Origin: Bacillota bacterium
GTDB taxonomy: Bacteria; Bacillota; Sulfobacillia; JAJZYS01; JAJYTV01
Assembly: GCA_021810725.1 (NCBI GenBank)
Contig: JAJZIE010000001.1
Location: forward strand, 1 to 48,880
Length of the DNA: 48,880 nucleotides
Direction of reading: 5' to 3'
Made by a program: the position numbers and the translations under genes
In this document: piece by piece, positions 10,426 to 34,052 of the stretch
Layout of the letters: each line of letters opens with the position of its first letter
Position numbering within the stretch: the first letter of the stretch is position 1
Notes under the pieces: model-generated
What the model was told of the DNA's origin: nothing
Database searches by the model: none
The model's input: the letters and a program-made list of their open reading frames with translations, nothing else

Positions 10426-11778
10426 TTGTCGGCTACGCAGGCGGGACGAACACTCGAGATCGCGGGCTGGGGACATGCCGTGCGCCAACAGGCGGACGTG
10501 CTGCGGCCCGAGCAGCAGGGTCGCCTCGCTGAGGCGCTCCGCGGCCCGGGCATCGCCCGTGGCCTCGGCAGGGCGTACGGCGATGCGGCCCTCTCGCAGG
10601 GCAGGGTTTGGCAGACGACGCGTCTCAGCCGGATGCTGTCGCTGAGCGAGGCCGGCCTCCTGACCGCGGAGGCCGGCGTCTCCCTCGGCGACATCGTGCG
10701 CACCTTCCTGCCGCGCGGCTGGACCCTGCCGGTGACGCCCGGCACCCAGTGGGTTACGCTCGGTGGCGCCGTGGCGGCCGACGTGCACGGCAAAAACCAT
10801 CACGCCGCCGGCACCTTCGGCCAGCACGTCAAGGAACTTGTCCTGCTCACGGCCGACGGACAGCTCAGGCGCATTTCGCCCGAAGGCCAGAAGGAACTCT
10901 TCTGGGCCACCGTCGGCGGCATGGGCCTGACCGGCGTCATCGTAGAGGTGACGGTCCAGCTCGTGCCCGCCGAGACCGGCTATTTGAGCGTCGACTACGT
11001 CCGCACAGGCGGACTCGAGGAGACGCTCGAGTGGTTCTCCGGCCACGACCGGCAGTATCCCTACACCGTCGCCTGGATCGACGGCCTGAAGGAGGGTCAG
11101 GGGCTTGGCCGCGCCGTGCTGATGGGCGGCCGGGTGACCGCGTCCCGCGAACTCACGGCCGGCGAACCAAGGTACCCGATGCCGCGCGGCGCCGTCCGCG
11201 TGCCGTTCGACTTTCCGAAGGGCAGCCTGAGCCTGCCCGTGGGACGAGCCTTCAACGCGGCCTACTACGGCATGCATCGTCCCCGCCAGAACGCGCGCGA
11301 GCCGTGGTGGAAGTTTTTCTACCCGCTCGACGTCGCCGAAGACTGGTACCGGCTCTATGGGCGGACAGGATTCGCGCAGTACCAGGGCGTCTACCCGCCC
11401 GAGGTCGGTCTTGGAGAGATCCGCGCCATCCTGCGCCGTATCCACGCGGCGCGCCATCCGAATTTCCTCGGCGTGCTGAAGCGCATGGGGCCCGCGTCTC
11501 CCGGCATGCTCTCGTTCCCGCGCGAGGGGCTCACCCTGGCCCTTGACCTCCCGGTGCAGGGCGAGGGAACCCTGCGCCTGTTCCAGGACCTCTACGCGAT
11601 GACGGCGGACTACGGCGGGCGGGTCTACCTGGCGAAGGACGCCTTCCTCACGCCCTCGATGTTCCGCCGCATGTACCCAGGCTGGGAGGCCTTCCTGGCC
11701 GTCAAGGCCAAGGTGGATCCGCAGGGCATGTTCCGCTCCCTGCTCTCGGAGCGCGTCGGCCTCGGGGAGGTGCGCTAG
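10426..11778 (+). CDS. dprE1: FAD-dependent oxidoreductase, DprE1-like (decaprenylphospho-beta-D-ribofuranose 2-oxidase family)
   Basis: RGLGRAYGDAAL and GGAVAADVHGKNHH motifs typical of DprE1-type PCMH flavoenzymes; TTG start. Confidence 0.8.
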   Translation: MSATQAGRTLEIAGWGHAVRQQADVLRPEQQGRLAEALRGPGIARGLGRAYGDAALSQGRVWQTTRLSRMLSLSEAGLLTAEAGVSLGDIVRTFLPRGWTLPVTPGTQWVTLGGAVAADVHGKNHHAAGTFGQHVKELVLLTADGQLRRISPEGQKELFWATVGGMGLTGVIVEVTVQLVPAETGYLSVDYVRTGGLEETLEWFSGHDRQYPYTVAWIDGLKEGQGLGRAVLMGGRVTASRELTAGEPRYPMPRGAVRVPFDFPKGSLSLPVGRAFNAAYYGMHRPRQNAREPWWKFFYPLDVAEDWYRLYGRTGFAQYQGVYPPEVGLGEIRAILRRIHAARHPNFLGVLKRMGPASPGMLSFPREGLTLALDLPVQGEGTLRLFQDLYAMTADYGGRVYLAKDAFLTPSMFRRMYPGWEAFLAVKAKVDPQGMFRSLLSERVGLGEVR

Positions 11779-12507
11779 ATGCCCCCCGGCCGCATCGCCA
11801 TCCTGGGCGCAACCTCGACCGTCGGGCGCGCCATCGCGGCCGAGTACGCGCGCGGTGGGCGGGACCTCCTGCTCTGCGGGCGCTCGCTCGGCGAGGTGGA
11901 GCGCGTGGCGCAGGACCTCAGCCTGCGCTACGGAGTCGCCGCCGAGGCCTGTCTGCTCGACCCCGACCTTCCGGACTACCCGCAGGTGCTCTGGCGCCTC
12001 GAAGGCGGGCGGCCGCTCGGGGGCGTCGTCTGGGCGATCGGCACGATGTCGGCCGCCGCCGGGGGCGGTGGTCCCGACGAGATCCGCGAGACCACCTGGG
12101 TGAATTTCGGCGCCGCCGTGGCGGCGATCGAGGGCGTTCTGCCGGCCGTGGATCCGAAGGGTTTCATCGTGCTCCTGTCTTCGGTGGCTGGTGAGCGAGG
12201 CCGCAGGAAGAACTACGTCTACGGCGCGGCGAAGGCGGCCCTCACCACCTACGGTCAGGGCCTCAATCACCGGCTCGCGGGGCGCGGACCGCGGGTCACC
12301 GTGGTGCAACTCGGTGTCGTCGACAGCCAGATGACCTGGGGCATGTCCGGCGGGCCCGCCGGGGCCGATCCCGAGCGGGTGGCGCGGGCGATCGTCCAGG
12401 CGGTGCGTGCCGGCAAGGGACGGGTGCACGTGCCGGCCGTCTGGGGACCGATCATGCTCCTGCTGCGCCTCGTGCCGGAGAGCGTCTTCAACCGCCTGCA
12501 GGTCTAG
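11779..12507 (+). CDS. dprE2: Short-chain dehydrogenase/reductase, DprE2-like
   Basis: ILGATSTVGRAIA glycine-rich motif; YVYGAAKAAL (YxxxK). ATG immediately follows the dprE1 stop. Confidence 0.75.
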   Translation: MPPGRIAILGATSTVGRAIAAEYARGGRDLLLCGRSLGEVERVAQDLSLRYGVAAEACLLDPDLPDYPQVLWRLEGGRPLGGVVWAIGTMSAAAGGGGPDEIRETTWVNFGAAVAAIEGVLPAVDPKGFIVLLSSVAGERGRRKNYVYGAAKAALTTYGQGLNHRLAGRGPRVTVVQLGVVDSQMTWGMSGGPAGADPERVARAIVQAVRAGKGRVHVPAVWGPIMLLLRLVPESVFNRLQV

Positions 12508-12521
12508 GGGAGGGTAGGGCC

Positions 12522-13439
12522 ATGGCGAACGCGGAGCTGCAGATCGGCGAAATCCCCGCGGAGATCGGGCAGGGCAGGGGCCTGTGGCGCCTGATGCGCC
12601 CGCGCCAGTGGATCAAGAACCTCCTCGTCTTCGCGCCGCTGATCTTCGCCGACGACTTCCTGCGCCTCAAGGACCTGCTGCCGGTCGCCCTGGCCTTTTT
12701 CTCCTTCTGCCTGCTCTCGAGCGCCGTCTACATCGCGAACGACTGGCGCGACCGCGAGGAGGACAGCCGCCACCCTAAGAAGCGGACGCGGCCACTGGCG
12801 AGCGGGCAGGTCTCGCTCGAGGCGGCCGGTGCCCTCCTCGCCGTGCTGCTGGCTCTGGGCCTGGGGCTCGCCTTCCTGAGCGGCCCCTGGGTGCTCCTCG
12901 TCGCAGCGCTTTTCCTGCTCGTCAACGTCCTCTACACCTACATCCTCAAGTCGCAGCTCTTCCTCGACGCCTTCGGCATCTCCGCGGGGTTCATGCTGCG
13001 GGCCCTCGCGGGGGCCGTCGCGATCGGCGTCGCGTTCTCGCCCTGGCTCTTCGCCCTCGTTCTGCTGCTCACGCTCTTCCTCGCCTTCGGCAAGCGGCGC
13101 AGCGAGCTCAGGGCTTCCTCGGCGCCCGAGCAGCACCGCGAGGTGCTCGGGCGCTACACGGCGCCGCTCCTCGACCAGATCCTCGGCGTGCTCGTCTCGA
13201 GCATGATCGGCGTCTACGCGATCTACTCCTTCGACCAGCCGCTGCATGCGCACGCCTTCATGCTGACGATCCCCTTCGTCATCTACGGCCTCTTCCGCTA
13301 CCTCTACCTGCTCTCGGCGAACGACCGCGAGAATCCGGACGAGCTCCTCGTCACCGACTGGCCGACGCTCGTCAATCTTGGCCTCTGGGGCGTCACGGTC
13401 GTCGCCATGCTGGTGCTGAACCGGCAGGGTGTCCTGTGA
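12522..13439 (+). CDS. UbiA-family prenyltransferase, decaprenyl-phosphate phosphoribosyltransferase-like
   Basis: RPRQWIKNLLVFAPLIFA N-terminus; NDWRDREEDSRHPKKRTRPLASG Asp-rich motif; about 8 TM segments. Confidence 0.85.
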   Translation: MANAELQIGEIPAEIGQGRGLWRLMRPRQWIKNLLVFAPLIFADDFLRLKDLLPVALAFFSFCLLSSAVYIANDWRDREEDSRHPKKRTRPLASGQVSLEAAGALLAVLLALGLGLAFLSGPWVLLVAALFLLVNVLYTYILKSQLFLDAFGISAGFMLRALAGAVAIGVAFSPWLFALVLLLTLFLAFGKRRSELRASSAPEQHREVLGRYTAPLLDQILGVLVSSMIGVYAIYSFDQPLHAHAFMLTIPFVIYGLFRYLYLLSANDRENPDELLVTDWPTLVNLGLWGVTVVAMLVLNRQGVL

Positions 13440-15398: not shown

Positions 15399-15423
15399 AA
15401 ACGGCCGCGCGCGGCCGCCGTTT
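15399..15423 (-). terminator. GC palindrome (ggccgcgcgcggcc core) followed by TTT on the minus strand, between tadC and tag
   Basis: Read directly. Lies about 250 nt after the tadC stop, so the assignment is tentative. Confidence 0.25.
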
Positions 15424-15676
15424 GGCGCCGCGCGCAAGTCGCTTCTTGGAACTGGCGCTGGGGCTGGCCATGGTGGCCGTCGCGCCGGACGGAACGTCGA
15501 TTGCGTCCCGTCCGCTTCTCGCCGCCGTCGCCACCTCGGTCGCGTGGAGCGGGACCGCATGCATCAAGCGGGAGGGCTCGACGGGAAGGTCCGCCCGCAG
15601 CAGTGTACAGCATAGTGCCTGGGCTCCTCTGGCGCATCGTCCAGTTGCTGCGGTCCAATGTTCCCAGGACTCGCTG

Positions 15677-16312
15677 TCAGATGGACCGCCAGAGTGACAT
15701 CAGCCATGGGATGGCCACAAGCCCCACCCCCTCGAGCAGCACGATGCCCGCGAGGGTCGTGAAGACATACGGGAGGTACGCGGCGCTGCGACGCAGCTCC
15801 TTGCGCACGTCGCCCAGGGCGCTGCGGCGGTAGCGGGCGATCGAGTCGCTGAGCGGCAGACCCAGCTGCGCGTCTCGCGAGAGCAGAGCGACCAGCCGGT
15901 CCGTCTCCGGTGTGCGCAGACTGAGGCGCAGGCCGTCGAGCGCGGCGGCGACGCTGTGCCCCTCTTGCACCCGATCCTGAAAGGACCTGAGGGCCGGACC
16001 CAAGGGGTCCTGCGCCCAGAGCCCCGCGTAGCGCAGGGCCGCGTGCAGCGGCTGGCCGGCGGCGGCGGCCATCGCGAGGTCGGTGAGAAGGCCGGGAACG
16101 GCCCGCCGCACCTGATCGCGGGCGCCGCTTTTGGCGAGGGCCGTCGGGAAGCGCCGCCAGAGCATCGCGGCAGGCCCGGCCAAGGCAAAGAGGGCCATGC
16201 CCCAGGGCGCGAGGAGTGCCAGGCCGATCCAGATCGGCAGCAGCAGGGGGCGCTGCCGGCCGGCGCGCCAAAGCGCCATGGCCAGCACCAGACGTGGAAG
16301 TGCCGCGATCAT
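15677..16312 (-). CDS. tadC: T2SSF-domain membrane protein, TadC-like (short, 211 aa)
   Basis: VPGLLTDLAMAAAAGQPLHAALRYA block typical of GspF/TadBC domains, with flanking TM segments. Start overlaps the tadB stop. Confidence 0.7.
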   Translation of the reverse strand: MIAALPRLVLAMALWRAGRQRPLLLPIWIGLALLAPWGMALFALAGPAAMLWRRFPTALAKSGARDQVRRAVPGLLTDLAMAAAAGQPLHAALRYAGLWAQDPLGPALRSFQDRVQEGHSVAAALDGLRLSLRTPETDRLVALLSRDAQLGLPLSDSIARYRRSALGDVRKELRRSAAYLPYVFTTLAGIVLLEGVGLVAIPWLMSLWRSI

Positions 16313-17016
16313 GGCAGGAGCGCGGACGCGAGATAGGGCACGCCGCCACCCGTCACGAGCGCCAGGGCGATGAGCCAGGGAATGGGAGCGTTGCCTTCGG
16401 CCGCGAGCACCAGCCCCGTGAACAGGAGGGCCGTGGCCATCAGGCCCGTGACCACGAAGTAGGGCAACGTCTCACCCTCCACGCTCGCCACCTCGCGCCG
16501 GTCGTCCGCCGCGTCCTCGAGCAGCACCGCAAGGTGGCGGTCCAGGGGCGCTCCCGTGTGTCGGCTGAGCGCGAGGGCCCTGGCGAGCCGGACCAGGAGC
16601 CCGATGCCGGCCCGTTGCCCAACATCGGCGAACGCCGCCTCGCTCGAGCCGCCGCGCAGCCAGTCCGCCAGGGCGGACTGCCAGAGCGGGCGCAGGTCGT
16701 CGCTGCAGGCCGGCAGGGCCGCCAGGGCGCAGAGCTCCGCGCTGCCGTAGAGCGAGGCCTGTTCGAACATGGCCTGGATCGGCTCCTCCGCCGCGACCGC
16801 GAGACGTCTAAGGCGCGCGTGCCGCAGATACTGGCGAAGACCCGCCTGCCAGAGCGCGACGGACGCCGCGGCCGCGAGCGCGACCGCAAGCCCCGAGGCC
16901 AGGGCGACCGCGAGCGCGACGAGCGGCGGCAAGAAACGCGCCATGCGCCGCGCGCCACCTGTAGCGAGGCTCGCGCCGAGCAACGCGACCGCGGCCAGGA
17001 GCACCGCGCCGTTCAT
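16309..17016 (-). CDS. tadB: T2SSF-domain membrane protein, TadB-like (235 aa)
   Basis: N-terminal TM, cytoplasmic helical domain, C-terminal TM pair. ATG at 17016 overlaps the tadA stop (ATGA); the upstream part of the 318-aa track ORF is an Arg/Pro-rich artefact. Confidence 0.65.
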   Translation of the reverse strand: MNGAVLLAAVALLGASLATGGARRMARFLPPLVALAVALASGLAVALAAAASVALWQAGLRQYLRHARLRRLAVAAEEPIQAMFEQASLYGSAELCALAALPACSDDLRPLWQSALADWLRGGSSEAAFADVGQRAGIGLLVRLARALALSRHTGAPLDRHLAVLLEDAADDRREVASVEGETLPYFVVTGLMATALLFTGLVLAAEGNAPIPWLIALALVTGGGVPYLASALLP

Positions 17017-17948
17017 GGCCACACCTGCCCGCCACGGCCCTCGTCGTATTGCAGCAGCATAGTCGGCCGGCGCTGTCCGCCGCTCCCGCGCTCGAGGTGC
17101 ACCACGCCGCCGAGGAGATGGCGCAGTCTGACGCGCAGCAGGCGAGGCGGCATGCTGCGGGCCGGAGCGGCCGCGTACACGAGACGTTCCGTCACGTCCC
17201 AGGCCGAGGTGGCGTGCAAGGTCGTCAGGCTGCCGCGATGGCCGGTGTCGAGGGCGGAGAGCCACGCCACCGTCTCGCGCCCGCGGATCTCCCCGACGAT
17301 GATGCGGTCTGGACGCATGTGCAGGGCGAGCCGCAGGAGGTCCTCGAGGTCGATGGCGTAGAGCCCGGCGCGGTTGGGAGAGCGCGTTTCCAGGGCGACG
17401 ACGTGCGGGTGGACACGGCCAAGTTCAAGCTCGCGCGTCTCCTCGATGGTCAGGAGCCGTTCGGATGGGTCGATGACCTCCGCGAGCAGGCGGACGAGCG
17501 ACGTCTTGCCGGTGCCGGCCGCGCCCGCGATCACGACGTTGCGGCGGTTTTTCACCCAGGAGCGCAGGATGCGCATCGGCCGCTCGTCCCCGTCGAGTGC
17601 CTCGAGCCATGCCCGCTCGAGGTCCACCTTGGCCACCTTGCGGATCGTCAGGGTCGGGGCGGGCGTCAGGGGCGGCATGGTGGCGGTGAAGCGCACGCCG
17701 TCGCCAAGTCGTCCGTCCGCGTAGGGCGAGGCCTGCGTGAGTTCGCGCCCCAGCGGCAGCAGCAGCCGCTCGATCAGCTCCTGCAGGGCGCGGCGGTCCG
17801 GGAAGGTCGCCGGTTCGGGGCCGACCTTGCCGCGCCGCTCGACGAACACGCGGTCGAAGTCGAGCACCATGATCTCGCTCACCTCCGCATCCCTGAACGC
17901 GGCCTCGAGCGGGCCGAGCCAGTAGCCGAGGTGCGTCTCAAAGGGCAT
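17013..17948 (-). CDS. tadA: Secretion ATPase of the TadA/CpaF/VirB11 (T2SSE) family, short form (311 aa)
   Basis: Walker A GAAGTGKTS; Asp box LLTIEETRELEL; Walker B RMRPDRIIVGEIRGRE; His box TGHRGSLTTLHA. ATG at 17948 lies 10 nt after GGGGAG. Confidence 0.85.
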   Translation of the reverse strand: MPFETHLGYWLGPLEAAFRDAEVSEIMVLDFDRVFVERRGKVGPEPATFPDRRALQELIERLLLPLGRELTQASPYADGRLGDGVRFTATMPPLTPAPTLTIRKVAKVDLERAWLEALDGDERPMRILRSWVKNRRNVVIAGAAGTGKTSLVRLLAEVIDPSERLLTIEETRELELGRVHPHVVALETRSPNRAGLYAIDLEDLLRLALHMRPDRIIVGEIRGRETVAWLSALDTGHRGSLTTLHATSAWDVTERLVYAAAPARSMPPRLLRVRLRHLLGGVVHLERGSGGQRRPTMLLQYDEGRGGQVWP

Positions 17949-18813
17949 GGTCCGCCGTCTCCCCGCGCCGGCGCCAGATCTCCGCTCCATGGCGCGCGAG
18001 GGTCTGTCTGCGCAGGGGAAGGCGTCCCGCCGGCACCTCGGTCAGGGCGGCGAGCGGCGCGAGACCCGCGAGCCAGCGCCGGTACTCGTCTTCCACCGCG
18101 GCTGCGGCGAGCAGGATGTCGCTCGCGTGCGCCAAGGACGCGATCAGGCCGCGGTCGCCGAGATTCGCGCTCGCGCGCACGACCACATGCCGCTCGCCGC
18201 GGTCGCGCTCGAGCCGGTCGAGCAGCGGCTCCATGCCGGAGCGCAGCAGGAGCTGCGGCTGGATCGGAGCCGGCACGACCCTCAGCCTCCGCGGGTAGCC
18301 CGGTAGCTCCTGGGACTGCCCCGACGACATGTACGCGGCTAGGCATGGCTTGAGCTTCAAGCGGCGCGCGTACTGGGGTTCGGCCGTATCCGTCTCGACG
18401 AGCAAGGTGCTGCGGCTGCGGGCCAGGTGGCAGGCGACGGCGAGGGCCACCACCGCCCCCTGGCCGGCATCCCCCGGCGCCACGACCACGGCCAGCGCCG
18501 GCTGCTCGCCGGACGGCTCGCCGCGCAGCTCCGCGGCGAGGTCGTCGAGTGCCAGATCGCCGCGGGCGGTGAAGCGTCCGCGCAGCCACGCGATCTCGGC
18601 GTCGGGGTGTACCACCTCGATGCGGCGCAGGGCCCGCTGCTCCTCGCCCGAGCGCACAAGACCGGGATCGATGACGACGCGGGCGTACTCCTCGTGCAGC
18701 ATGCGGTCTTCCGTCTCGGCCAGGGACAGGGTCAGGGGTTGGCCGTAGACGGCCGCACCGCGCTCGTGCAGCTGCAGCACCGTCTCAGGATGCAGGGCGT
18801 AGAGCGAGCGCAA
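17938..18813 (-). CDS. tadZ: TadZ/CpaE-like assembly protein with a degenerate MinD/ParA-type P-loop
   Basis: Position between cpaB and tadA. LAVVVAPGDAGQGAVVALAVACHLARSRSTLLVETD aligns to the CpaE xxGAKGGVGxTTxAxNLA...LVDLD block but lacks K and G-K-T. TTG start lies 6 nt after GTAGGAGGGA. Confidence 0.5.
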   Translation of the reverse strand: MRSLYALHPETVLQLHERGAAVYGQPLTLSLAETEDRMLHEEYARVVIDPGLVRSGEEQRALRRIEVVHPDAEIAWLRGRFTARGDLALDDLAAELRGEPSGEQPALAVVVAPGDAGQGAVVALAVACHLARSRSTLLVETDTAEPQYARRLKLKPCLAAYMSSGQSQELPGYPRRLRVVPAPIQPQLLLRSGMEPLLDRLERDRGERHVVVRASANLGDRGLIASLAHASDILLAAAAVEDEYRRWLAGLAPLAALTEVPAGRLPLRRQTLARHGAEIWRRRGETADHAL

Positions 18814-18824
18814 GGCAATCCCTC

Positions 18825-19394
18825 CTACTCTTGCGGCGTGGCGGTGATGATCAGGTGGCCCGCGGCGACGCCCGCGAGGAGCGCCGGGAGAAGCGCCTTG
18901 GATACCTCGAGAGCGACAGAGGCACCGGTGCCGCCGGGCGCCACCTGCGCCAGCGGCACCAGAGACTCCGGCGCCTGCCCGGCCTGGGCGATGTAGACGG
19001 ACACCAGCTGTCCCGCCGAGAGTGGCGGTGCGCTTAGGAGGGCGCCTGCCGGGATGCCGACCACCTGGCCGCCGGCGCTGGACCTCGCGGGTCCCACCCT
19101 GACCGCGCTGCGCAGGAGAGGTAGGCCCGCGGCCAGCGGGACCGCGAGCCGTCCTTCGGGCCGACGGAGGAGGGGTCCCGGCAGTTTGCCCGTCCAGTGC
19201 GCCTGCCGCACGTCGGCGGCAGTCAGGGAGGTGCCTGCGGGGAGATTCCGCGCGGCTACGAGGATGGTTTCGCCAGAGCCGAGAGTTGCCGCCTCGAAGG
19301 CCAGAAAGGCGAACAGGGCGCTCAGCACCGGCAGCCAGAGGGGGTCGCGCAGGCGCTCAGCGAGGGCGCGCAAACTGGGGACGCGTGTCGACAA
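18825..19394 (-). CDS. cpaB: CpaB/RcpC-like Flp-pilus assembly protein (TM anchor plus SAF domain)
   Basis: TM segment LWLPVLSALFAFLAF, then ILVAARNLPAGTSLTAADV (SAF-like). TTG at 19394 lies 9 nt after GGAGAGGAGG. Confidence 0.6.
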   Translation of the reverse strand: MSTRVPSLRALAERLRDPLWLPVLSALFAFLAFEAATLGSGETILVAARNLPAGTSLTAADVRQAHWTGKLPGPLLRRPEGRLAVPLAAGLPLLRSAVRVGPARSSAGGQVVGIPAGALLSAPPLSAGQLVSVYIAQAGQAPESLVPLAQVAPGGTGASVALEVSKALLPALLAGVAAGHLIITATPQE

Positions 19395-21063
19395 GGCGCA
19401 GTTCCTCCTCTCCAAGCTGTACCGCAAAGGGCAGCGTGCCGAACTCATCCAGCAGCAGGGCCTCGCCGGGGCGGCAAGACCTGAGAAAGTCCAGGGCGCG
19501 ATCGGAGAGGCGGAGAACTTCCTTGAGGCGAGGCAGATCGCTCGGCTGCTGGTGGAAGAGCGTCAGGCGGCCGGCGTTGGCGAGCACGAGCCTGCCTCCT
19601 GTCGACTCCACGAAGTCGCCAACGTTCTGGGTGACGATCGTGACGATGAGGCCGCGCTTGCGCGCCCGCTTGGCGAGGTCGACGAGCGCGTCCTCCGCGC
19701 CGCCGGCTCCCAGCCAGAGATGAGCCTCGTCGAGGGTGAGCCAGAAGGGCTGACGCAAGGCCAGGGCCTCTGCCGAGGAGATGGCGTAACGGGCGGCCTC
19801 ACCCAGCAGGGACGGCCAGGCCGCCTGCGGCAGGCTGCGCAGCGACAGGGCCAGACGGGTCGGGCCCTGGGCGTCTGCGGGCAAAGCCGCGCCCGACTCG
19901 CCGCCCAGATGCCGCACGACGGGCAGGTACTCGCCCTCCGGATCGACCACGAGCAGGTAGTCCGGCCGCTGTCGAAGGAGTTCCGCCTTAACGAAGGCCG
20001 ACTTGCCATGCCCGGGGCTTCCCAGTACCACCGCCATCGGGTTGGCGGCGTGGAGGCGGTCCCGCCGCACGGAGGTGCGGTCCCTGAGGTGCACGCCGAG
20101 CTGGTCGCCTTCGGCGGCGGGCGCCGCGGCGGGCGTCAAGTCCAGGCAGGAGAGGGCGGTGGCCGTGAGCAGGCGGGCCGGTGGCTCGCGCCTGCTCGGC
20201 AACGGCAGGAGCCAGTCCTGCTGGGCCGCCTGCAGGCCCAACTGCACTTGCAGGAGGAAGCCCATCTCGGCGAACGTGGTGCGCATGAGGGCCGCTTGCG
20301 CCTCACATCCGCCGCGGTCCGATCCCTCGGCCGCGATCAGCCACGCCGTGGCAAAGAGGCGCTCCCGTCCCTCCACGATCACCTCGCGCAGCTTGAAGGC
20401 ATCCTCTTGCGCCTTCTCCGTCTCGACGTCCGGCAGGCGGCCACGCTGGCGGCGCAGGAAGGAACTCGCGTGCAGGTGCTGCAGCCGCCGCTCCAGGCGG
20501 AGCCGTGCTTCCGCCGCGGAAAGCGGGCTGAGCCGCAGGGCCACGATCGCGGTCTGCGAGAGGGACCACAGCCGCTCGAGGCTGAGCTCGTCCAACTGCT
20601 CCGGATAGGACTCCACCGCCATGAGCTGGCGGAAGCCGGTGCCCGCCTCCAGAAGGCGCATATGGGCGCGGGGCCCTGTGCGGCCCGACGTGGGGAAGGC
20701 CGCGCGCGGTCGGGCGGTCACCCGTCCGGTGCCTGCGAACCAGTGGGGCAAGGCGGGATTGGCGATGGCCCAGCGAAGCTCGGCCGGTGGTTCCTCTCCG
20801 AGCGGCCGAGCCGCAATGCCCAGGTCTTGCAGGGCCTGTTGGTTGCCCGCGCCCTCCTGGAGCCAGAGGTAGAGGTGGCGGAGCGCGGCCTGTAGCGAGA
20901 GCGTGAAGAACAGGGGACCCTGCACGGAGAGCAGGAAGTTGCGCAGCGCGACCTGATGGGCGTCGCGTTCCTCGGCACCCAGCCAGGCGTATTCCCTGCG
21001 ACCGAGCTCATAGATGGTGCCGGCGGGCAGGTGTGCGTCGAGGGAGTGCGGCGACCATCGCAT
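19357..21063 (-). CDS. virB4: VirB4/TraE/PrgJ-family conjugation-type ATPase, compact (568 aa)
   Basis: Walker A VVLGSPGHGKSAFVK followed by LLVVDPEGEYLPVVRHLGG; Walker B FWLTLDEAHLWL; LIVTIVTQNVGDF. The N-terminal LGAEERDAHQVALRNFLLSVQGPL block is typical of Gram-positive VirB4. Confidence 0.8.
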   Translation of the reverse strand: MRWSPHSLDAHLPAGTIYELGRREYAWLGAEERDAHQVALRNFLLSVQGPLFFTLSLQAALRHLYLWLQEGAGNQQALQDLGIAARPLGEEPPAELRWAIANPALPHWFAGTGRVTARPRAAFPTSGRTGPRAHMRLLEAGTGFRQLMAVESYPEQLDELSLERLWSLSQTAIVALRLSPLSAAEARLRLERRLQHLHASSFLRRQRGRLPDVETEKAQEDAFKLREVIVEGRERLFATAWLIAAEGSDRGGCEAQAALMRTTFAEMGFLLQVQLGLQAAQQDWLLPLPSRREPPARLLTATALSCLDLTPAAAPAAEGDQLGVHLRDRTSVRRDRLHAANPMAVVLGSPGHGKSAFVKAELLRQRPDYLLVVDPEGEYLPVVRHLGGESGAALPADAQGPTRLALSLRSLPQAAWPSLLGEAARYAISSAEALALRQPFWLTLDEAHLWLGAGGAEDALVDLAKRARKRGLIVTIVTQNVGDFVESTGGRLVLANAGRLTLFHQQPSDLPRLKEVLRLSDRALDFLRSCRPGEALLLDEFGTLPFAVQLGEEELRLVDTRPQFARPR

Positions 21064-21101
21064 CAGAGCGGAACACGACCCGCGATCGGGTCAATCGACA
21101 T
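21063..21101 (-). CDS. 12-codon upstream ORF (MSIDPIAGRVPL) whose stop overlaps the virB4 start (TGATG)
   Basis: ATG lies 11 nt after AAGGAGG. The virB4 ATG has no SD of its own, which suggests translational coupling. Confidence 0.3.
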   Translation of the reverse strand: MSIDPIAGRVPL

Positions 21102-21518
21102 CAGACCACGACCCTCCTTGTGGGATAGGTCGTTATTCCAGCAAATGTAAATGACACCTGCAAAATACTGTTCGGACTGTCCATTTCTGGCGCAGTCCGT
21201 AGGCTCAGCCTCGGTGCGGTATCCACCAGTGCGCGACGCCAGGCTCCACCGGGCCCAGACTTGGCTCGGCCACCGCGCCGCCAGCGGGAAGTCCCCTTGA
21301 GCACTGCGGCGGACGCCTGCCGGCGATGGGGCGACACCCTGGGGCTTCGAGCGTGGCAGTACGGTCGGGCACCGCCGCGTCCTGAGCGCGGCCAAGGGTC
21401 GGGTAGCTGGACGCTATGCCTGTGAAGGGTAACATAGCCGCCTGCGCCCCCTTCGAGGTTTGCCACAAGTTATGTAACGTCCGTCGTCCGTGCCACCGCC
21501 CGGGGTCCGCGACAAGGC

Positions 21519-21545
21519 GGCGGCGCCGCAGGACGCGGCGCCGCC
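21519..21545 (-). terminator. Perfect 11-bp GC hairpin (ggcggcgccgc-N5-gcggcgccgcc) 32 nt downstream of the dapB-like stop
   Basis: Read directly; no U-tract. Confidence 0.4.
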
Positions 21546-21576
21546 GAGGTATCGAGGCCGGAAGGAGCCGAGCGTT

Positions 21577-22377
21577 TCAGGCGAAGAGCAGGCGGTCCAG
21601 ACCGCGCACCAGTCCCTGCACCCTCAGGACTTCTCTCGTCGCGAGCAGCGTGCCCGCGACGTAGGGGTCCGCCCCGGACCCCGCGTCGTGGCGGATGGTC
21701 AGCCGCTCGTTGGGTAGGCCGAAGATCGTCTCGAACGCGATGACGTAGCTCGGCAGGCGCAACGAGTGCACCTGCGTGCCTTCGATCTCGGCGCCTCGCG
21801 TGTCCGGGCGACCGTGCAGGGCGGAGGGCGCCACCTCCTGGCGAGGCCGCGCCACTTGTCCCAATTCCTCGGCGAGTTCCTGCACCGTGCCGCTGGGCGC
21901 GTCCATCTTGCCCGCGCTGGCGTAATCGATGATCTCCCACGACGGAATGTACTTGGCCGTCTCAAGCGCGAAATGCTTGGCGAGAGCCGCCGTGATCGAG
22001 AAGTTGCCCGCCGCGATGACGCCTAGGCCCTTGGCCGTCGCCAAGGCGGCGATCTCCTCGTAATCCTGCGCCGTGAGGCCGGATGAACCGATCACGACAC
22101 GCACCCCGCGCTCGAGCGCGAGGATGGTGTGGCGTTTCACCGCCTCGGGCGAAGTGTAGTCGATGAGCACGTCGGTCGGTTCGGTGAGCGCGGACGCAAG
22201 GTCGGGGGCGATCTGGACGCCCGCCGGGGAAAGCCCGAGTGCCGTACCGACGTCGGAGCCAGCCAGCCGTCGCGCTACGGCGCCCGTGAGCTGGAAGCCT
22301 TCCGAAGAAATGATCTGCCGCGCGACGGCGCCGCCCGTCCAACCGGTCGCTCCCGCCACGCACACACGAATGGTCAT
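21577..22377 (-). CDS. dapB: 4-hydroxy-tetrahydrodipicolinate reductase (DapB)-family protein with a non-canonical active-site motif
   Basis: VAGATGWTGG Rossmann motif; DVLIDYTSPEA; GNFSI; KMDAPSGT. The canonical E-x-H-H-x-x-K reads IIDYASAGK. ATG at 22377 lies 9 nt after AGGAG. Confidence 0.75.
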   Translation of the reverse strand: MTIRVCVAGATGWTGGAVARQIISSEGFQLTGAVARRLAGSDVGTALGLSPAGVQIAPDLASALTEPTDVLIDYTSPEAVKRHTILALERGVRVVIGSSGLTAQDYEEIAALATAKGLGVIAAGNFSITAALAKHFALETAKYIPSWEIIDYASAGKMDAPSGTVQELAEELGQVARPRQEVAPSALHGRPDTRGAEIEGTQVHSLRLPSYVIAFETIFGLPNERLTIRHDAGSGADPYVAGTLLATREVLRVQGLVRGLDRLLFA

Positions 22378-22447
22378 CGTCACCCGCTCCTGGAGAGTGT
22401 GCCGCCACCTTCTGCCGTTGGCGGAACGTTCGCCTGTCGCCCTCCGG

Positions 22448-22813
22448 TTACCTGCTGTCCCGCGGTCTACCCACTAGACAATGCGCGATGGTTTCGAACT
22501 GATGCCTCGGCCCGTCCTGCGCCGGATCCTGCCAAAGGGTGACGTCGTGATGCTCCGCGGCGGGCGAGCGGCGCAGGGTGTGTCGCCAGAGGCGCGGCGC
22601 GAGGCGCCGGATCGGTTGGCCGTCGACCTCGAGCAGCGCGTAGCCCGCGCAGGGACCCGCCAGCAGGACGGCGACCAGGAGCGGCAGCCGCCCGGCGAGC
22701 GCCGCGAGAGCCAGCAGCCCGACCGCGAAGAACGAGATCGCCTGGCTCGTCTCGAGGTCACCCCAGATGCGCGGCTGCACCTGCAGCAGGTCGACCGGTA
22801 CGTGGCACTTCAC
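22448..22813 (-). CDS. PrgI/VirB3-like small T4SS membrane protein (121 aa)
   Basis: VPVDLLQVQPRIWGDLETSQAISFFAVGLLALAALAG... matches the PrgI-family pattern (short N-terminus, conserved L-x-x-x-Q, then two TM segments). GTG start overlaps the upstream stop (GTGA). Confidence 0.6.
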   Translation of the reverse strand: MKCHVPVDLLQVQPRIWGDLETSQAISFFAVGLLALAALAGRLPLLVAVLLAGPCAGYALLEVDGQPIRRLAPRLWRHTLRRSPAAEHHDVTLWQDPAQDGPRHQFETIAHCLVGRPRDSR

Positions 22814-23514
22814 AGCAGGAGGCGCCGCCAGGCGCCGAGCAGAGTGAACGGCAGGCGCAGCATGAAGAAGAGCAGCACGAGACTCAGCAGCATGTCCGAT
22901 GCGGGCACCGCGATCGAGAGTTCTCCCGCGAGACCGCGCACGCCCACCAGGATGAAGGCCTCGGCGGCTGGCAGGACCGACCACGCCGCCGTCTGCCAGA
23001 TCCAGAGCATGGGGATGCGCCCAAGGCGTGCGTGCACACCCAGCAGGAAGGCGAGCGGCGCGACGGAGGAGAGCAGCGCGAGCGCTGCGAGACGCGCCAG
23101 GAGCAGGCCCGCCAGGAAGACAAGCATGAGGAGGTATGGCACGCCGAAGACGAGCAGGTCTATGAGACTGGACCCGAACCCCATCGCAGGAACCGCCACC
23201 GCCCCCGCCACCTGGCCGACCGTGGCCACGAGGGCGTCGTTCAGCTGCCAGAGCCAGGAGACGATGGTGTGGCTCACGAGCACGCCGCCCACGGCGAGCA
23301 TGAGGCGCGCCACCGCCTGCAGGGACCGGCCGTAGCCGGCCTCCAGCATGAACAGCGGTACCGCGAGCGCGCCACCAGCCAGCAGCGCGATGTGGGAGAG
23401 CTCCGACACCACGGCGCCGGACGGCGGGAAGCCATGCGCCCAGAGCAGGGCGCCCACCCAGCCGTACGCGCGCTGCAGCGCCGGGCTCAGAGCGGCGCGG
23501 AAAGTCCAGCCCAT
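22810..23514 (-). CDS. Polytopic (about 6 TM) membrane protein, VirB6/TrbL-like, miniature (234 aa)
   Basis: Hydrophobic profile. The LALLSSVAPLAFLLGVHARLGRIPMLWIWQTAAW block resembles the TrbL/VirB6 core. ATG at 23514; the upstream part of the 323-aa track ORF is an Arg-rich artefact. Confidence 0.5.
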   Translation of the reverse strand: MGWTFRAALSPALQRAYGWVGALLWAHGFPPSGAVVSELSHIALLAGGALAVPLFMLEAGYGRSLQAVARLMLAVGGVLVSHTIVSWLWQLNDALVATVGQVAGAVAVPAMGFGSSLIDLLVFGVPYLLMLVFLAGLLLARLAALALLSSVAPLAFLLGVHARLGRIPMLWIWQTAAWSVLPAAEAFILVGVRGLAGELSIAVPASDMLLSLVLLFFMLRLPFTLLGAWRRLLL

Positions 23515-23729
23515 TGGAAGATCACCCGTACGATGTCCTTGGCGAAGATCACGAGCACCAGCCCGGCCATCACCGAGTACAGGTGGCCCCAGGCGCGCGT
23601 GCGGTGCTGCGGATTGTCGCCGCTCGTCCAGAGCAGGTACGCGCCGTAGAGCAGGGCGAGCACCGCGAAGCCCGCGAACCAGCTTTGCAGCGTCGTGATG
23701 GCGTTGAGGACGAACTGCAGGATGGGCAT
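23487..23729 (-). CDS. 80-aa two-TM protein, Maff2/VirB2(TrbC)-like candidate pilin or channel subunit
   Basis: MPILQFVLNAITTLQSWFAGFAVLALLYGAYLLWTSGDNPQHRTRAWGHLYSVMAGLVLVIFAKDIV. The TM-loop(GDNP...)-TM layout recalls the Maff2 family of Firmicute conjugative elements. Confidence 0.5.
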   Translation of the reverse strand: MPILQFVLNAITTLQSWFAGFAVLALLYGAYLLWTSGDNPQHRTRAWGHLYSVMAGLVLVIFAKDIVRVIFQWAGLSAPL

Positions 23730-23734
23730 CGAAC

Positions 23735-24097
23735 CTAATCCTGCGCCAAGGCGTCGGCCGGCGCCTTGCCTTCAGGAGCATCCTCGCCCAGCGGCAGGGG
23801 AGGATCCAGAAAGCGCAGGCGGTCCGCGACGATCTCGATCACGCGGCGCTGTTCCCCGTCCGAGGTGTCGAGGGGGCGACTCGCGATGCGGCCTTCGATG
23901 CCGACCAGCCTGCCCTTGAGCAGGTACTTGGAGGTGGCCTCGGCCAGCCTGCGGAACATGACGACGGGCAGGAAATCCGTACTGTTGCCCGCGCGGCCGA
24001 TCGCCAGCGAGAACGCGGAGATCGCGAGGCCGTCCCGCGAGTAGCGGAGAACCGAGTCCGTGGCGAGCCGACCGACCAGGACAACGCGGTTGATCAT
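23735..24097 (-). CDS. ssb: Single-stranded DNA-binding protein, short form (120 aa) without the canonical acidic D-D-D-I-P-F tip
   Basis: MINRVVLVGRLATDSVLRYSRDGLAISAFSLAIGR...VVMFRRLAE...YLLKGRLVGIEGRI OB-fold signature. ATG lies 7 nt after AAAGGAGAG. Confidence 0.85.
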   Translation of the reverse strand: MINRVVLVGRLATDSVLRYSRDGLAISAFSLAIGRAGNSTDFLPVVMFRRLAEATSKYLLKGRLVGIEGRIASRPLDTSDGEQRRVIEIVADRLRFLDPPLPLGEDAPEGKAPADALAQD

Positions 24098-24127
24098 GGG
24101 ACATCTCTCCTTTCTTGGCGCGGAAGT

Positions 24128-24149
24128 CCCATTCGATCCTCGAAATGGG
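24128..24149. promoter_or_regulatory. Imperfect inverted repeat CCCATTCGA-TCC-TCGAAATGGG in the divergent ssb / O-methyltransferase intergenic region; candidate operator
   Basis: Read directly. Confidence 0.3.
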
Positions 24150-24222
24150 TTATCCTTCCAACGGATGTTCGCCTGTCGGTGGCGAATGCCGTGCATGGCC
24201 TCGACCGAAAGGGGGAGCTTCG

Positions 24223-24888
24223 GTGACGGAGGAGACGTGGATCGCGGTGGATCGCTTCTTCTGCGACCACCTGGTGCCAAGCGACGAGGTCCTCGACGCG
24301 GTGCTCGAGGAGTCGGCCGCGGCGGGACTGCCGGACATCCAGCTGGCGCCGAACCAGGCGGCGCTGCTGCAGATGCTGGCGCGACTCCAAGGCGCCAGCA
24401 GACTGCTCGAGATCGGTACGCTCGGGGGCTACAGCGGTATCTGGCTGGCGCGGGCGTTGCCCGAGGGCGGTCGTCTCGTGACCGTCGAGGCGAATCCCCA
24501 CCATGCGGAGGTCGCGAGACGCAACTTCGAGCGGGCGGACGTTCTCCACAAGGTGGACCTGCGCCTGGGACCGGCCGCGGACGTTCTGCCAGCCATCGCG
24601 CGGGAGGGCGGCGATCCGTTCGACCTCGTCTTCATCGATGCGGACAAGCGGAGCATACCGCTCTACTTCGATTGGGCCCTGCGCCTCACGCGGCCCGGCA
24701 GCCTGATCATCGTGGACAACGTCGTGCGGCGGGGCGAGGTGGCTGTCGCCTCGAGTGCGAACGAGGACGTTCAGGGCGTGCGGCGCTTCATCCAGAGCCT
24801 AAAGGGCGACGACCGGGTGCAGGCGACGGCCCTGCAGACCGTCGGGACGAAGGGATACGACGGTTTTGCGATCGTTCAGGTCCTCTAG
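24223..24888 (+). CDS. Class I SAM-dependent O-methyltransferase (family 3, caffeoyl-CoA OMT/YrrM-like)
   Basis: LLEIGTLGGYSGIWLA; VTVEANPHHAEVAR; DLVFIDADK; IIVDNV. GTG at 24223 lies 5 nt after AAAGGGGGAG. Confidence 0.85.
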   Translation: MTEETWIAVDRFFCDHLVPSDEVLDAVLEESAAAGLPDIQLAPNQAALLQMLARLQGASRLLEIGTLGGYSGIWLARALPEGGRLVTVEANPHHAEVARRNFERADVLHKVDLRLGPAADVLPAIAREGGDPFDLVFIDADKRSIPLYFDWALRLTRPGSLIIVDNVVRRGEVAVASSANEDVQGVRRFIQSLKGDDRVQATALQTVGTKGYDGFAIVQVL

Positions 24889-33208: not shown

Positions 33209-34039
33209 ATGGCGAAGGGCGCCCTTATGCTGATCGGCGGGCACGAGGAGCCGCGCGGCGAGATCCTGCGCTGCTTCAGCGAACTCGTGGGGGGCTCGCG
33301 CGAGATCGCCCTCTGCACCCTGGCGACGGTGGAGCCCCAGGCGGCGTTCAAGCGTTACCGCGAGAGCCTGAGGGACCTCGGCGTCACGGCCGTGCACCAC
33401 CTCGACGCCCGCACGCGCGAGGACTGCAGCGACGAGCGGGGCATCGGCCTGCTCGAGCACGCGGATGGGATCTTCTTTTCCGGCGGCGACCAGCTGCGCA
33501 TCACGAGCGTCCTGGGCGGCACGCCGTACGAGGATGCCTTGCGGCGCGCGCATCTTCGTGGCGCGGTGATCGGTGGAACCTCGGCCGGCGCTTCCGCGAT
33601 GAGTTCGACGATGCTGGTCGGCGGCGAGGACGAGGAGTCCGCCCGGCGCGGCACGGTCACGATGTGCGCGGGCCTCGGCCTCCTGCCGGACGCAGTCGTG
33701 GACCAGCACTTCGCCCAGCGCGGCCGCATCAACCGCCTGCTGGCCGCGCTTGCGCAGAATCCCGGCATCCTCGGCATCGGCATCGACGAGAACACGGCCG
33801 TGCTCGTGCATCCCGGCGAGCGCATGCAGGTCCTGGGCAGCGGCACGGTCACGGTGCTCGACGCCCGCGGCGCGTACGTCGGCGACGCCTCGGAGGCGGC
33901 CGTCGACAGGCCCATGCGGCTTGGCCCCGTCGCGCTCTGGGTGCTGCCCGAACGGTCCACGTTCGATCTCGCCCGACGCGTGTCGACGCATAATCCCGAT
34001 TCCCCGGGGGAACATAGCGAAGCGCCTGCATCGCGCTGA
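33209..34039 (+). CDS. cphB: Cyanophycinase (peptidase S51), intracellular type
   Basis: LMLIGGHEE; GIFFSGGDQLRI; GGTSAGASAM (catalytic Ser); VDQHFAQRGRINRL. No signal peptide. Confidence 0.85.
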   Translation: MAKGALMLIGGHEEPRGEILRCFSELVGGSREIALCTLATVEPQAAFKRYRESLRDLGVTAVHHLDARTREDCSDERGIGLLEHADGIFFSGGDQLRITSVLGGTPYEDALRRAHLRGAVIGGTSAGASAMSSTMLVGGEDEESARRGTVTMCAGLGLLPDAVVDQHFAQRGRINRLLAALAQNPGILGIGIDENTAVLVHPGERMQVLGSGTVTVLDARGAYVGDASEAAVDRPMRLGPVALWVLPERSTFDLARRVSTHNPDSPGEHSEAPASR

Positions 34040-34052
34040 GGAGGAGCCTTTC

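Follow-up and report, generated by a model that had tools for sequence, protein, structure and literature searches.

A chromosomal operon of a Bacillota bacterium that links a VirB2-type pilin and a conjugation-like membrane core to Tad pilus genes

The stretch of DNA that we have analysed, 48,880 nucleotides from a Bacillota bacterium (GenBank assembly GCA_021810725.1, contig JAJZIE010000001.1, positions 1 to 48,880), is referred to here as "the window"; on its minus strand we have found a predicted operon in which the genes of a type IV secretion system (T4SS) core, headed by the gene of an SSB (single-stranded DNA-binding protein), are joined to the genes of a Tad pilus motor. An original prediction, made from the sequence alone, had described four small genes at 22448-24097 as a unit encoding the SSB and VirB2-, VirB6- and VirB3-like membrane proteins. 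All four are located on the minus strand, with the coordinates and the sizes that it gave, but the boundary that it drew does not hold: the unit runs on, via an inserted dapB gene, into a VirB4 gene and a five-gene Tad module, to 15677, and the four genes read as the first part (under half) of a larger operon. By gene order, the ancestral operon comprises ten genes: SSB, pilin, VirB6, VirB3, a short VirB4, CpaB-like, TadZ-like, TadA, TadB and TadC.

With regard to function, the reading that we favour, and in which our confidence is evenly balanced, is that the operon may encode a domesticated conjugation core of the MPF_FATA class (pCF10/CD1110-type), joined to a Tad pilus motor, which would serve the uptake or exchange of chromosomal DNA; gene content and analogy with known systems point this way.

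Operon layout and gene calls

The ten genes, listed in the order of transcription, are the following:

23735..24097, minus strand: SSB, 120 residues; ATG start, with GGAG before it; PF00436 at 3e-23, TIGR00621 at 80.8 bits
23487..23729, minus strand: predicted VirB2-type T4SS pilin, 80 residues; PF18895 at 35.9 bits (gathering score 26.6), TrbC/VirB2 at 4.8e-5
22810..23514, minus strand: putative divergent VirB6/TrbL-like polytopic membrane protein, 234 residues; 28-nt overlap with the pilin gene
22448..22813, minus strand: PrgI/VirB3-like protein, 121 residues; GTG start within a GTGA overlap; PF12666 at 25.8 bits (gathering score 27)
19357..21063, minus strand: short VirB4-family ATPase, 568 residues; Walker A GSPGHGKS, Walker B LTLDEAH
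18825..19448, minus strand: CpaB/RcpC-like SAF-domain protein, anchored to the membrane at its N-terminus; PF08666 (SAF) at 27.8 bits (gathering score 21); start possibly at 19394
17938..18813, minus strand: TadZ/CpaE-like protein, 291 residues; degenerate ParA/MinD-type P-loop, APGDAxxGA
17013..17990, minus strand: ATPase of the TadA/CpaF-VirB11 superfamily; T2SSE PF00437 at 5e-35; start uncertain, 311 residues according to gene callers
16309..17016, minus strand: TadB-like platform protein, 235 residues; position conserved in all loci
15677..16312, minus strand: TadC-like platform protein, 211 residues, last gene of the operon; PF00482 (T2SSF) at 37.2 bits (gathering score 25.2)

The G+C content of the window is about 70%, and long open reading frames (ORFs) are present in all frames. 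The reality of the four leading ORFs is supported by several independent properties: their GC3 values are 0.86-0.90 and their GC2 values 0.43-0.48; all four genes have orthologues, arranged alike, in more than 20 independent contigs, some of the copies being identical; the start codons are conserved, the 234-residue protein beginning with an invariant M-G-W and the 121-residue protein with M-[KRT]-C-x-V-P; and the pairwise dN/dS values against four orthologous loci are 0.00-0.41 for every operon gene. On these grounds, we consider the four ORFs to be genes, and not chance ORFs of a 70% GC sequence. The junctions have been re-read exactly as predicted: 5 nt separate the SSB gene from the pilin gene, the pilin and VirB6-like genes share 28 nt, and the VirB6-like and PrgI-like genes overlap in GTGA. 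Since the starts of the 234-residue and 121-residue proteins are conserved, the 28-nt dual-coding overlap is real. Within it (23487-23514), the same bases encode, in two frames, the conserved end of the pilin (..WAGLSAPL) and the invariant beginning of the VirB6-like protein (MGW..), and they do so in every clade-A orthologue. Two plus-strand ORFs (22481-23335 and 23032-23649) also pass the GC3 filter, and we have rejected them as antisense shadows of the conserved VirB6-like and pilin genes.

The ten-gene order without dapB is seen in the loci L012, L013 and L014, where the 234-residue protein is 54-60% identical, and in the distant clade (L027/L029). This distant clade (L015, L016 and L027-L030), in which the VirB6-like protein is 26-31% and methionyl-tRNA synthetase (MetRS) 63-75% identical, has the gene order pilin-VirB6-PrgI-VirB4-SAF-TadZ-TadA-TadB-TadC, the same as in the window.

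All operon genes are under purifying selection; in the same comparison, the dN/dS of MetRS is 0.09-0.14, that of the SSB 0.02-0.15, and that of the pilin 0.00-0.09, the lowest in the operon and comparable to MetRS. These values bear on the view that the operon is a decaying, functionless remnant of an integrated conjugative element, which we regard as highly improbable. The loss of the relaxase, coupling protein, hydrolase and VirB8-like genes, the shortened VirB4 and the housekeeping gene that sits in the middle of the operon are what such a remnant might display; however, the ORFs are all intact in more than 20 contigs, the ATPase motifs are intact, every gene is constrained, the pilin as strongly as MetRS, the overlapping, translationally coupled junctions are conserved, and, except in L024, VirB4 has a control motif (described below) ahead of it wherever dapB splits the operon. 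Selection and synteny thus already speak against a remnant.

Scans of the window with Rfam (at the gathering threshold) and for tRNA genes have returned no match, and a scan of 15400-24400 for sigma-70 promoters and intrinsic terminators has returned no promoter, and terminators at chance level only.

The VirB2-type pilin

The original prediction that the 80-residue protein is VirB2-like has been borne out: it matches the T4SS pilin family PF18895 above the gathering score, and also TrbC/VirB2 and the Mbov_0395 pilin-like family NF045849 (4.6e-4). The expected two transmembrane segments are also seen in the AlphaFold2 model (pLDDT 83), which is a two-helix hairpin with a basic loop between the helices (SGDNPQHRTRAW). 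Judged without a signal-peptide predictor, no leader is evident in the protein, the modelled helix beginning at residue 2. From the profile matches and the predicted hairpin, we assign the protein as a VirB2-type T4SS pilin; its assembly into a filament is predicted.

A likeness to the archaeal Ced system, which had also been proposed, stands in part: the top Foldseek match of the pilin model in the Protein Data Bank (PDB) is the CedA1 conjugation pilus of Aeropyrum pernix (8DFU; TM-score 0.70, rmsd 2.7 Å), at an E-value of 0.89 that is not significant. Sequence searches of the PDB with the profiles of the pilin and the PrgI-like protein have returned nothing relevant. The hhalign probability of the pilin with PrgF is 0.5%, and its profile-profile probability with the N-terminus of the VirB6-like protein, a relation that has been reported for CedA1 and CedA, is 2.6%. 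In the distant clade, the pilin is 52-59% identical.

The VirB6-like and PrgI/VirB3-like proteins

The 234-residue protein has no direct match in Pfam or NCBIfam, and the search of 1.84 billion representative proteins with a profile of 17 orthologues has returned only 16 matches. The assignment as VirB6-like, which the original prediction had made, is supported by three lines of evidence. First, among its distant relatives, nine of the ten that were scanned match TrbL_4 and/or TrbL, five of them above the TrbL_4 cut-off. Second, when run against the sequences of the PDB, the extended profile has hit only TrwI, which is the R388 VirB6 (E 0.92). Third, TrwI/VirB6 chains of R388 take five of the first six places in the Foldseek search with its AlphaFold2 model (pLDDT 74.5), with a probability of up to 1.00, E 0.04-0.08 and a TM-score of 0.33-0.43; the sixth place is taken by a chain of a whole-assembly R388 entry whose identity is not given in the output. 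On this evidence, convergent and individually weak, we have accepted the protein as divergent VirB6/TrbL-like. The predicted number of about six transmembrane segments is approximately right: the model contains five long helices and one short helix, and a crude hydropathy scan gives five to six, the count being approximate. In profile-profile comparisons, the protein aligns with PrgH in register over 173 columns at a probability of 10.6%, and with the 281-residue protein of pTZC1 at 3.9%; like those made with the pilin, these comparisons are uninformative.

The 121-residue protein scores just below the PrgI cut-off itself (25.8 bits against 27); within its family, orthologues and distant relatives included, 10 of 14 members match PrgI, the best at 7.6e-8, in agreement with the PrgI/VirB3-like identity that had been proposed. 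In the relatives without dapB, its gene abuts or overlaps the VirB4 gene.

The VirB4 ATPase and the Tad module

The 568-residue protein matches the CD1110-family VirB4 model NF045971 (5e-38, 131 bits), under its equivalog cut-off of 325, and the C-terminal domain of the Thermoanaerobacter VirB4 (PDB 4AG5; 4e-19), of which about 120 residues (approximately 112-231), located between the Walker A and Walker B regions, have no counterpart in it. The Walker motifs are intact, and the nearest plasmid proteins are CD1110-family VirB4 proteins, at 29% identity. We therefore classify it, from these matches, as a member of the VirB4 family and not as a CD1110 equivalog.

The five genes that follow VirB4 resemble a Tad module, in which a TadA-type ATPase is accompanied by TadB and TadC platform proteins. 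The CpaB-like gene comes after VirB4 in all relatives, L016 and L027 included, and its product matches the CpaB model TIGR03177 weakly (1.4e-3). The TadZ-like protein has no match in Pfam or NCBIfam; its P-loop region matches VpsO weakly at the profile level (E 0.05), and its counterpart of 310 residues in the distant clade (L029) shows weak matches to Response_reg and CbiA/ParA. Its N-terminal 37 residues (MRSLYALHPETVLQLHERGAAVYGQPLTLSLAETEDR) are almost invariant, even between loci that are 54% identical overall, which suggests a conserved interaction surface. The TadA ATPase matches TIGR03819 (TadA-family conjugal-transfer-associated ATPase) at 216 bits and VirB11 at 146 bits, both below the respective cut-offs. 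The TadB-like protein has no family match and has been identified only by weak paralogy to the adjacent TadC (BLASTP 5e-4, in the C-terminal region). Beyond TadC lies an unrelated Tag glycosylase gene. In L027, two more ORFs are located 3' of TadC, one of them weakly TadE-like; such weakly TadE-like ORFs occur in the distant clade only. Neither an Flp pilin nor a prepilin peptidase has been found in the related loci, which were read by tblastn with the window proteins and by selective ORF and Pfam checks. Against PHROGs, only the SSB has matched, apart from a generic terminase-type ATPase match for VirB4.

The single-stranded DNA-binding protein

The SSB consists of a canonical oligonucleotide-binding (OB) fold and a short acidic tail of about 20 residues. 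Its C-terminus reads ...GEDAPEGKAPADALAQD and, as had been noted before, lacks the acidic-hydrophobic tip D-D-D-I-P-F; seven orthologues of 115-120 residues also end without the tip D-D-D-[IL]-P-F. An OB fold without this tip is the trait of the competence-type SsbB, and the SSB shares it, as had been proposed. The PDB chains that it matches best (top 75.9 bits) are named no more specifically than "Single-stranded DNA-binding protein"; of the chains with a name of their own, "protein A" (6BHW) scores 71 bits and "ssbB" (3VDY) 67 bits. Like the SsbB of Bacillus subtilis and the SSBs of plasmids and integrative conjugative elements (ICEs), it is a small, canonical, tip-less OB-fold SSB that is encoded together with a DNA-transport apparatus; unlike SsbB, it matches "protein A" chains equally well and retains an acidic tail. 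The SSB gene is kept in every clade-A locus that covers its position and in part of the distant clade. The absence of an SSB gene from the operon locus in L016, L018 and L027 implies that another SSB exists in those genomes, and it argues against the SSB of the operon being the sole SSB of its genome.

The dapB insertion and the control motif

Three further features of the operon region are the following:

24154..24171, minus strand: control motif 1, 18 nt, CGAACATCCGTTGGAAGG, 56 nt upstream of the start codon of the SSB
21577..22383, minus strand: dapB (4-hydroxy-tetrahydrodipicolinate reductase); TIGR00036 at 157.7 bits, cut-off 122
21157..21174, minus strand: control motif 2, CGAACAGTATTTTGCAGG, 93 nt upstream of the start codon of VirB4

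The dapB gene (dN/dS about 0.1) is missing between PrgI and VirB4 in L012, L013, L014 and the distant clade, and we have rejected it as a component of the machine, as these relatives have no dapB there. Together with its spacer (window 21064-22447), it is a lineage-specific insertion into an operon whose genes are closely packed in other respects. The length of the dapB-VirB4 spacer differs between loci, the extremes being about 150 nt in L024 and about 840 nt in L011; in the window it is 513 nt long and has no Rfam match.

The core of control motif 1 is invariant in 10 aligned loci, in which the surrounding spacer diverges; 17 loci have a single copy in this position. Conserved AGGAT and CGAAT blocks come next, and then the ribosome-binding site. 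The degenerate pattern SGAACANNNNTTKGMAGG has exactly two matches in the window, both at the motif sites, against 0.00 expected. Control motif 2 is present in the dapB-containing loci that cover the spacer, with the exception of L024, and is absent from L012 and L014, which are without dapB. Since the motif precedes both, the two halves that dapB has split would have kept common control, which supports their functional unity; carrying the same motif, the two halves should be switched on together.

The AGGA...GAAT blocks after the motif resemble a sigma-H-type promoter; the pattern AGGA-N16-18-GAAT alone is not enriched, with one match against 1.7 expected. In its first half, the motif is similar to the LexA box of Gram-positive bacteria, CGAACRNRYGTTYC, whose consensus is taken from PMC2248561. 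The canonical Cheo box GAAC-N4-GTTC occurs nowhere in the window, so that the LexA reading of the motif is uncalibrated.

Chromosomal position and relatives

The operon occupies a fixed place next to housekeeping genes. It adjoins a divergent O-methyltransferase gene and metG-tatD in the window and in seven related loci (L007, L009, L010, L014, L023, L024 and L026), metG-tatD in the distant loci L016 and L027-L029, and metG in the short contig L030; MetRS identity across the genomes that share this position is 63-100%. We regard the operon, from this synteny, as chromosomal, fixed in its position and, most probably, vertically inherited. The adjoining region of the window (24115-46531) is a conserved Bacillus-type block, metG-tatD-yabE-ksgA-veg-ispE-purR-glmU-prs-mfd-spoVT, the B. 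subtilis counterpart of which is located near the replication origin. In L027 (9353-20234), the operon lies exactly between metG and abrB-rsmI-yazA. The T4SS loci of Patescibacteria have also been noted as origin-proximal (PMC12102498).

The hallmarks of an ICE or a plasmid have not been found at the locus: Pfam and NCBIfam scans of the 48.9-kb window, together with the precomputed annotation of L001, have revealed, around the operon, housekeeping genes alone and no relaxase, type IV coupling protein (T4CP; VirD4 or TcpA), integrase or replication gene, and the location next to metG is fixed. The IMG/VR viral contigs have yielded no relatives, and a tblastn search of 72,556 plasmids has given no match for either the pilin or the VirB6-like protein. 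Direct word-based homologue searches have returned a narrow clade only (20 hits for the 234-residue protein, 18 for VirB4 and seven for the pilin).

These findings bear on a second explanation, in which the operon would be the mating-pair-formation half of a conjugation donor apparatus, with the relaxase, the coupling protein and oriT at another chromosomal site or carried by a mobilisable element. We consider this improbable, if clearly less so than a remnant. It is in keeping with it that T4CP and relaxase are often encoded far from virB4 (PMC12102498), that the closest named relatives are the conjugative CD1110-family VirB4 proteins, and that TIGR03819 is described as conjugal-transfer-associated; against this, there is no relaxase, coupling protein or oriT within the 48.9 kb, the fixed position at metG across a deep divergence is unlike that of a mobile element, and the hydrolase and VirB8-like genes of monoderm conjugative cores, which pCF10 and pTZC1 carry, are absent from the operon.

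Comparison with known systems

The shared core of the MPF_FATA class consists of PrgF, PrgH and PrgI together with VirB4 (Guglielmini 2014, PMC4027160), and the comparison with its members does not sustain the description of the window genes as "miniature": the operon is collinear with prgE-prgF-(prgG)-prgH-prgI-prgJ of pCF10, at about equal sizes. In pCF10, the order is PrgE (OB fold, 144 residues), PrgF (75), PrgG (98), PrgH (266), PrgI (117) and PrgJ, the VirB4 (796); PrgH, which had been described as several-fold larger than the 234-residue protein, is thus of similar length, and it matches Pfam TrbL at 29 bits, PrgE having no Pfam match. The counterparts in Cutibacterium pTZC1 have 67, 281 and 178 residues, followed by a VirB4 of 756. 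Only the VirB4 of the window is clearly shortened, with 568 residues against 756-796 (about 200 fewer).

The window operon shares with pCF10, CD1110/CD1115 and pTZC1 the order of an OB-fold protein, a two-helix protein of about 75 residues, a TrbL/VirB6 protein of about 270, a PrgI protein of about 120 and VirB4; a VirB4 ATPase, a VirB6/PrgH-like protein beside VirB3 and VirB4, and a PrgI/VirB3-like protein upstream of VirB4 are all found in it. At the position of PrgF/CD414 (Maff2-like), however, a protein of the same size belongs to PF18895 and has no detectable similarity to PrgF. The operon further differs in being chromosomal and fixed, in its canonical PF00436 SSB and attached Tad module, and in that the window contains no relaxase, VirD4, hydrolase, VirB8-like protein or adhesin.

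The T4SS of Patescibacteria is chromosomal and has lost the relaxase, its PF18895/PF04956 pilins being located near VirB3, VirB6 and VirB4 (Quinonero-Coronel et al. 2025, PMC12102498). The window operon resembles it (PMC12102498; Wang et al. 2023, via PMC12857230) in having a monoderm-type, MPF_FATA-related chromosomal core with no relaxase nearby, in the VirB2-like pilin that adjoins VirB3, VirB6 and VirB4, and in the functional link with a system of the type IV pilus kind; this likeness is one of gene content and setting. The differences are that the window comes from another phylum, spore-former-like Bacillota with large genomes, that it has one pilin and not arrays, that an SSB heads the operon and Tad genes are part of it, and that no VirB1, VirB8 or VirD4 is encoded nearby.

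Archaeal Ced/Ted systems (CedA/CedA1/CedA2/CedB and TedA/TedB/TedC) import DNA, have no relaxase and cooperate with a type IV pilus system (PMC9905601). Together with Ups, they share with the window operon a domesticated chromosomal T4SS that has been cut down to a VirB2-like pilin, a VirB6-like channel and a VirB4-like ATPase. In addition, CedA1 of A. pernix is a pilin that undergoes no processing, no leader is obvious in the window pilin, and the VirB4 of 568 residues is close in length to the NCBIfam CedB model of 590 positions. There is, in contrast, no significant sequence similarity (VirB4 scores 17.3 bits against the CedB model, cut-off 700), the window system is bacterial and has a VirB3/PrgI protein, and Ced and Ups are separate loci. 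DNA import by Ced/Ted is induced by DNA damage, and the one lead to such induction of the window operon is the conserved motif with its likeness to a LexA box.

With Tad/Flp pili, the operon has in common its TadA-type ATPase, its pair of T2SSF-type platform proteins and its TadZ/CpaE-like and CpaB-like SAF proteins, all arranged as is usual; it differs from them, the actinobacterial TIGR03819 cluster included, in scoring below the equivalog cut-offs, in being fused to a T4SS operon, and in that the window contains no Flp pilin or prepilin peptidase. The tad genes of Micrococcus luteus are required for transformation, so that Tad pili can serve in DNA uptake (PMC4322843).

In our literature searches, no account of a Bacillota operon that unites T4SS, Tad and SSB genes has come to light. 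T4SSs that have been domesticated or co-opted are already known (Ced/Ted, ComB, Patescibacteria); almost all Gram-positive T4SSs have been reported to be conjugation systems of mobile elements (PMC12857230; PMC4027160), the monoderm T4SS classes have been reported to lack pilins (PMC4027160; PMC12102498), and VirB2 has been reported absent from Gram-positive T4SSs except those of Patescibacteria (PMC12857230). The operon adds to Patescibacteria a second, independent case of a monoderm VirB2 pilin, in Bacillota genomes of ordinary size, chromosomally fixed and strongly conserved. Its gene order points to derivation from a pCF10-type core, and this bears on the origin of the Ced/Ted and Patescibacteria systems.

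Proposed function

In the function that we favour, the uptake or exchange of chromosomal DNA, VirB4 would dock on a membrane platform of the VirB3 and VirB6 proteins and power the building of a VirB2-type filament or channel; contact or retraction force may come from the Tad module; single-stranded DNA would pass the membrane through the T4SS-Tad apparatus; and the tip-less SSB would coat this DNA in the cytoplasm. That DNA is the probable substrate follows from the conservation of the co-operonic SSB, from the Tad-dependent transformation of M. luteus (PMC4322843) and from the precedent of Ced/Ted (PMC9905601). Chromosomal DNA is favoured over export of a mobile element because no relaxase or coupling protein accompanies the operon. 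The direction, import or exchange, is inferred by analogy with Ced/Ted, Helicobacter ComB and the M. luteus Tad pilus. A more specific version, to which we give distinctly less credence, is that the operon is a bacterial counterpart of Ced-plus-Ups in a free-living lineage of spore-former-like Bacillota, in which a VirB2-pilus core, a Tad module and an SSB would be united in one stress or stationary-phase operon for the exchange or uptake of chromosomal DNA. The T4SS-Tad-SSB fusion offers a compact candidate for a bacterial domesticated DNA-exchange apparatus, and the two-copy control motif a handle on the inducing condition.

Several observations weigh against a role in DNA uptake or exchange. 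The structural matches are weak: the CedA1 E-value of 0.89 falls short of significance for so small a fold, and the best E-value of the VirB6 match is 0.04. No Flp prepilin or TadV prepilin peptidase is apparent, there being no candidate small ORF after TadC and no family match among the operon proteins, and the window contains neither a VirB1-like hydrolase nor a VirB8-like protein. The genes of the prepilin and its peptidase may lie at other sites of the genome, and so may those of a relaxase or a T4CP; the carriers are uncultured Bacillota/Clostridia metagenome-assembled genomes, some of them labelled Thermaerobacter sp.; and the T4SS of Patescibacteria is not thought to use ComEC-dependent competence (PMC12857230). 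With regard to the SSB, no gene for it is detectable at the operon locus in L016, L018 and L027, which means that it is not obligatory for the machine; PrgE, which occupies the same position in pCF10, is dispensable for conjugation (PMC11137577); and the SSB could be inherited baggage.

These last points also favour a third explanation, a domesticated machine with a non-DNA substrate, active in adhesion, in cell-cell contact or in the exchange of proteins or small molecules, whose SSB would be left over from a conjugative ancestor. We hold this to be possible but rather doubtful, though considerably more plausible than a donor apparatus. Besides the loci that have no SSB gene and the dispensable PrgE, it can draw on the T4SS of Patescibacteria, which is chromosomal and relaxase-less, has pilins of the PF18895 type and has been proposed to have a non-conjugative role (PMC12102498; PMC12857230), and on the 89K T4SS of Streptococcus suis, which secretes protein (PMC12857230). 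On the other hand, purifying selection on the SSB is strong, and its gene is present in every covering clade-A locus and in part of the distant clade; the operon and its flanks contain no effector-like or toxin-immunity genes; and there is a single pilin, not a variable array.

Neighbouring genes

Elsewhere in the window, on the plus strand, we have observed three further groups of genes. At 10426-13439, three consecutive genes encode an FAD oxidase similar to DprE1, a short-chain reductase similar to DprE2 and a prenyltransferase of the UbiA family, a trio that is typical of decaprenyl-phosphoryl-arabinose synthesis in Actinomycetota and unexpected in Bacillota. At 33750-36692 and upstream (also in L001, 1-296), a cyanophycin synthetase gene (TIGR02068, 1024 bits) neighbours a Peptidase_S51 gene of the cyanophycinase type. 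At 6600-8531, a trehalase is encoded whose best NCBIfam matches are the archaeal TreH1 and TreH2 (596 and 504 bits), under the equivalog cut-offs.

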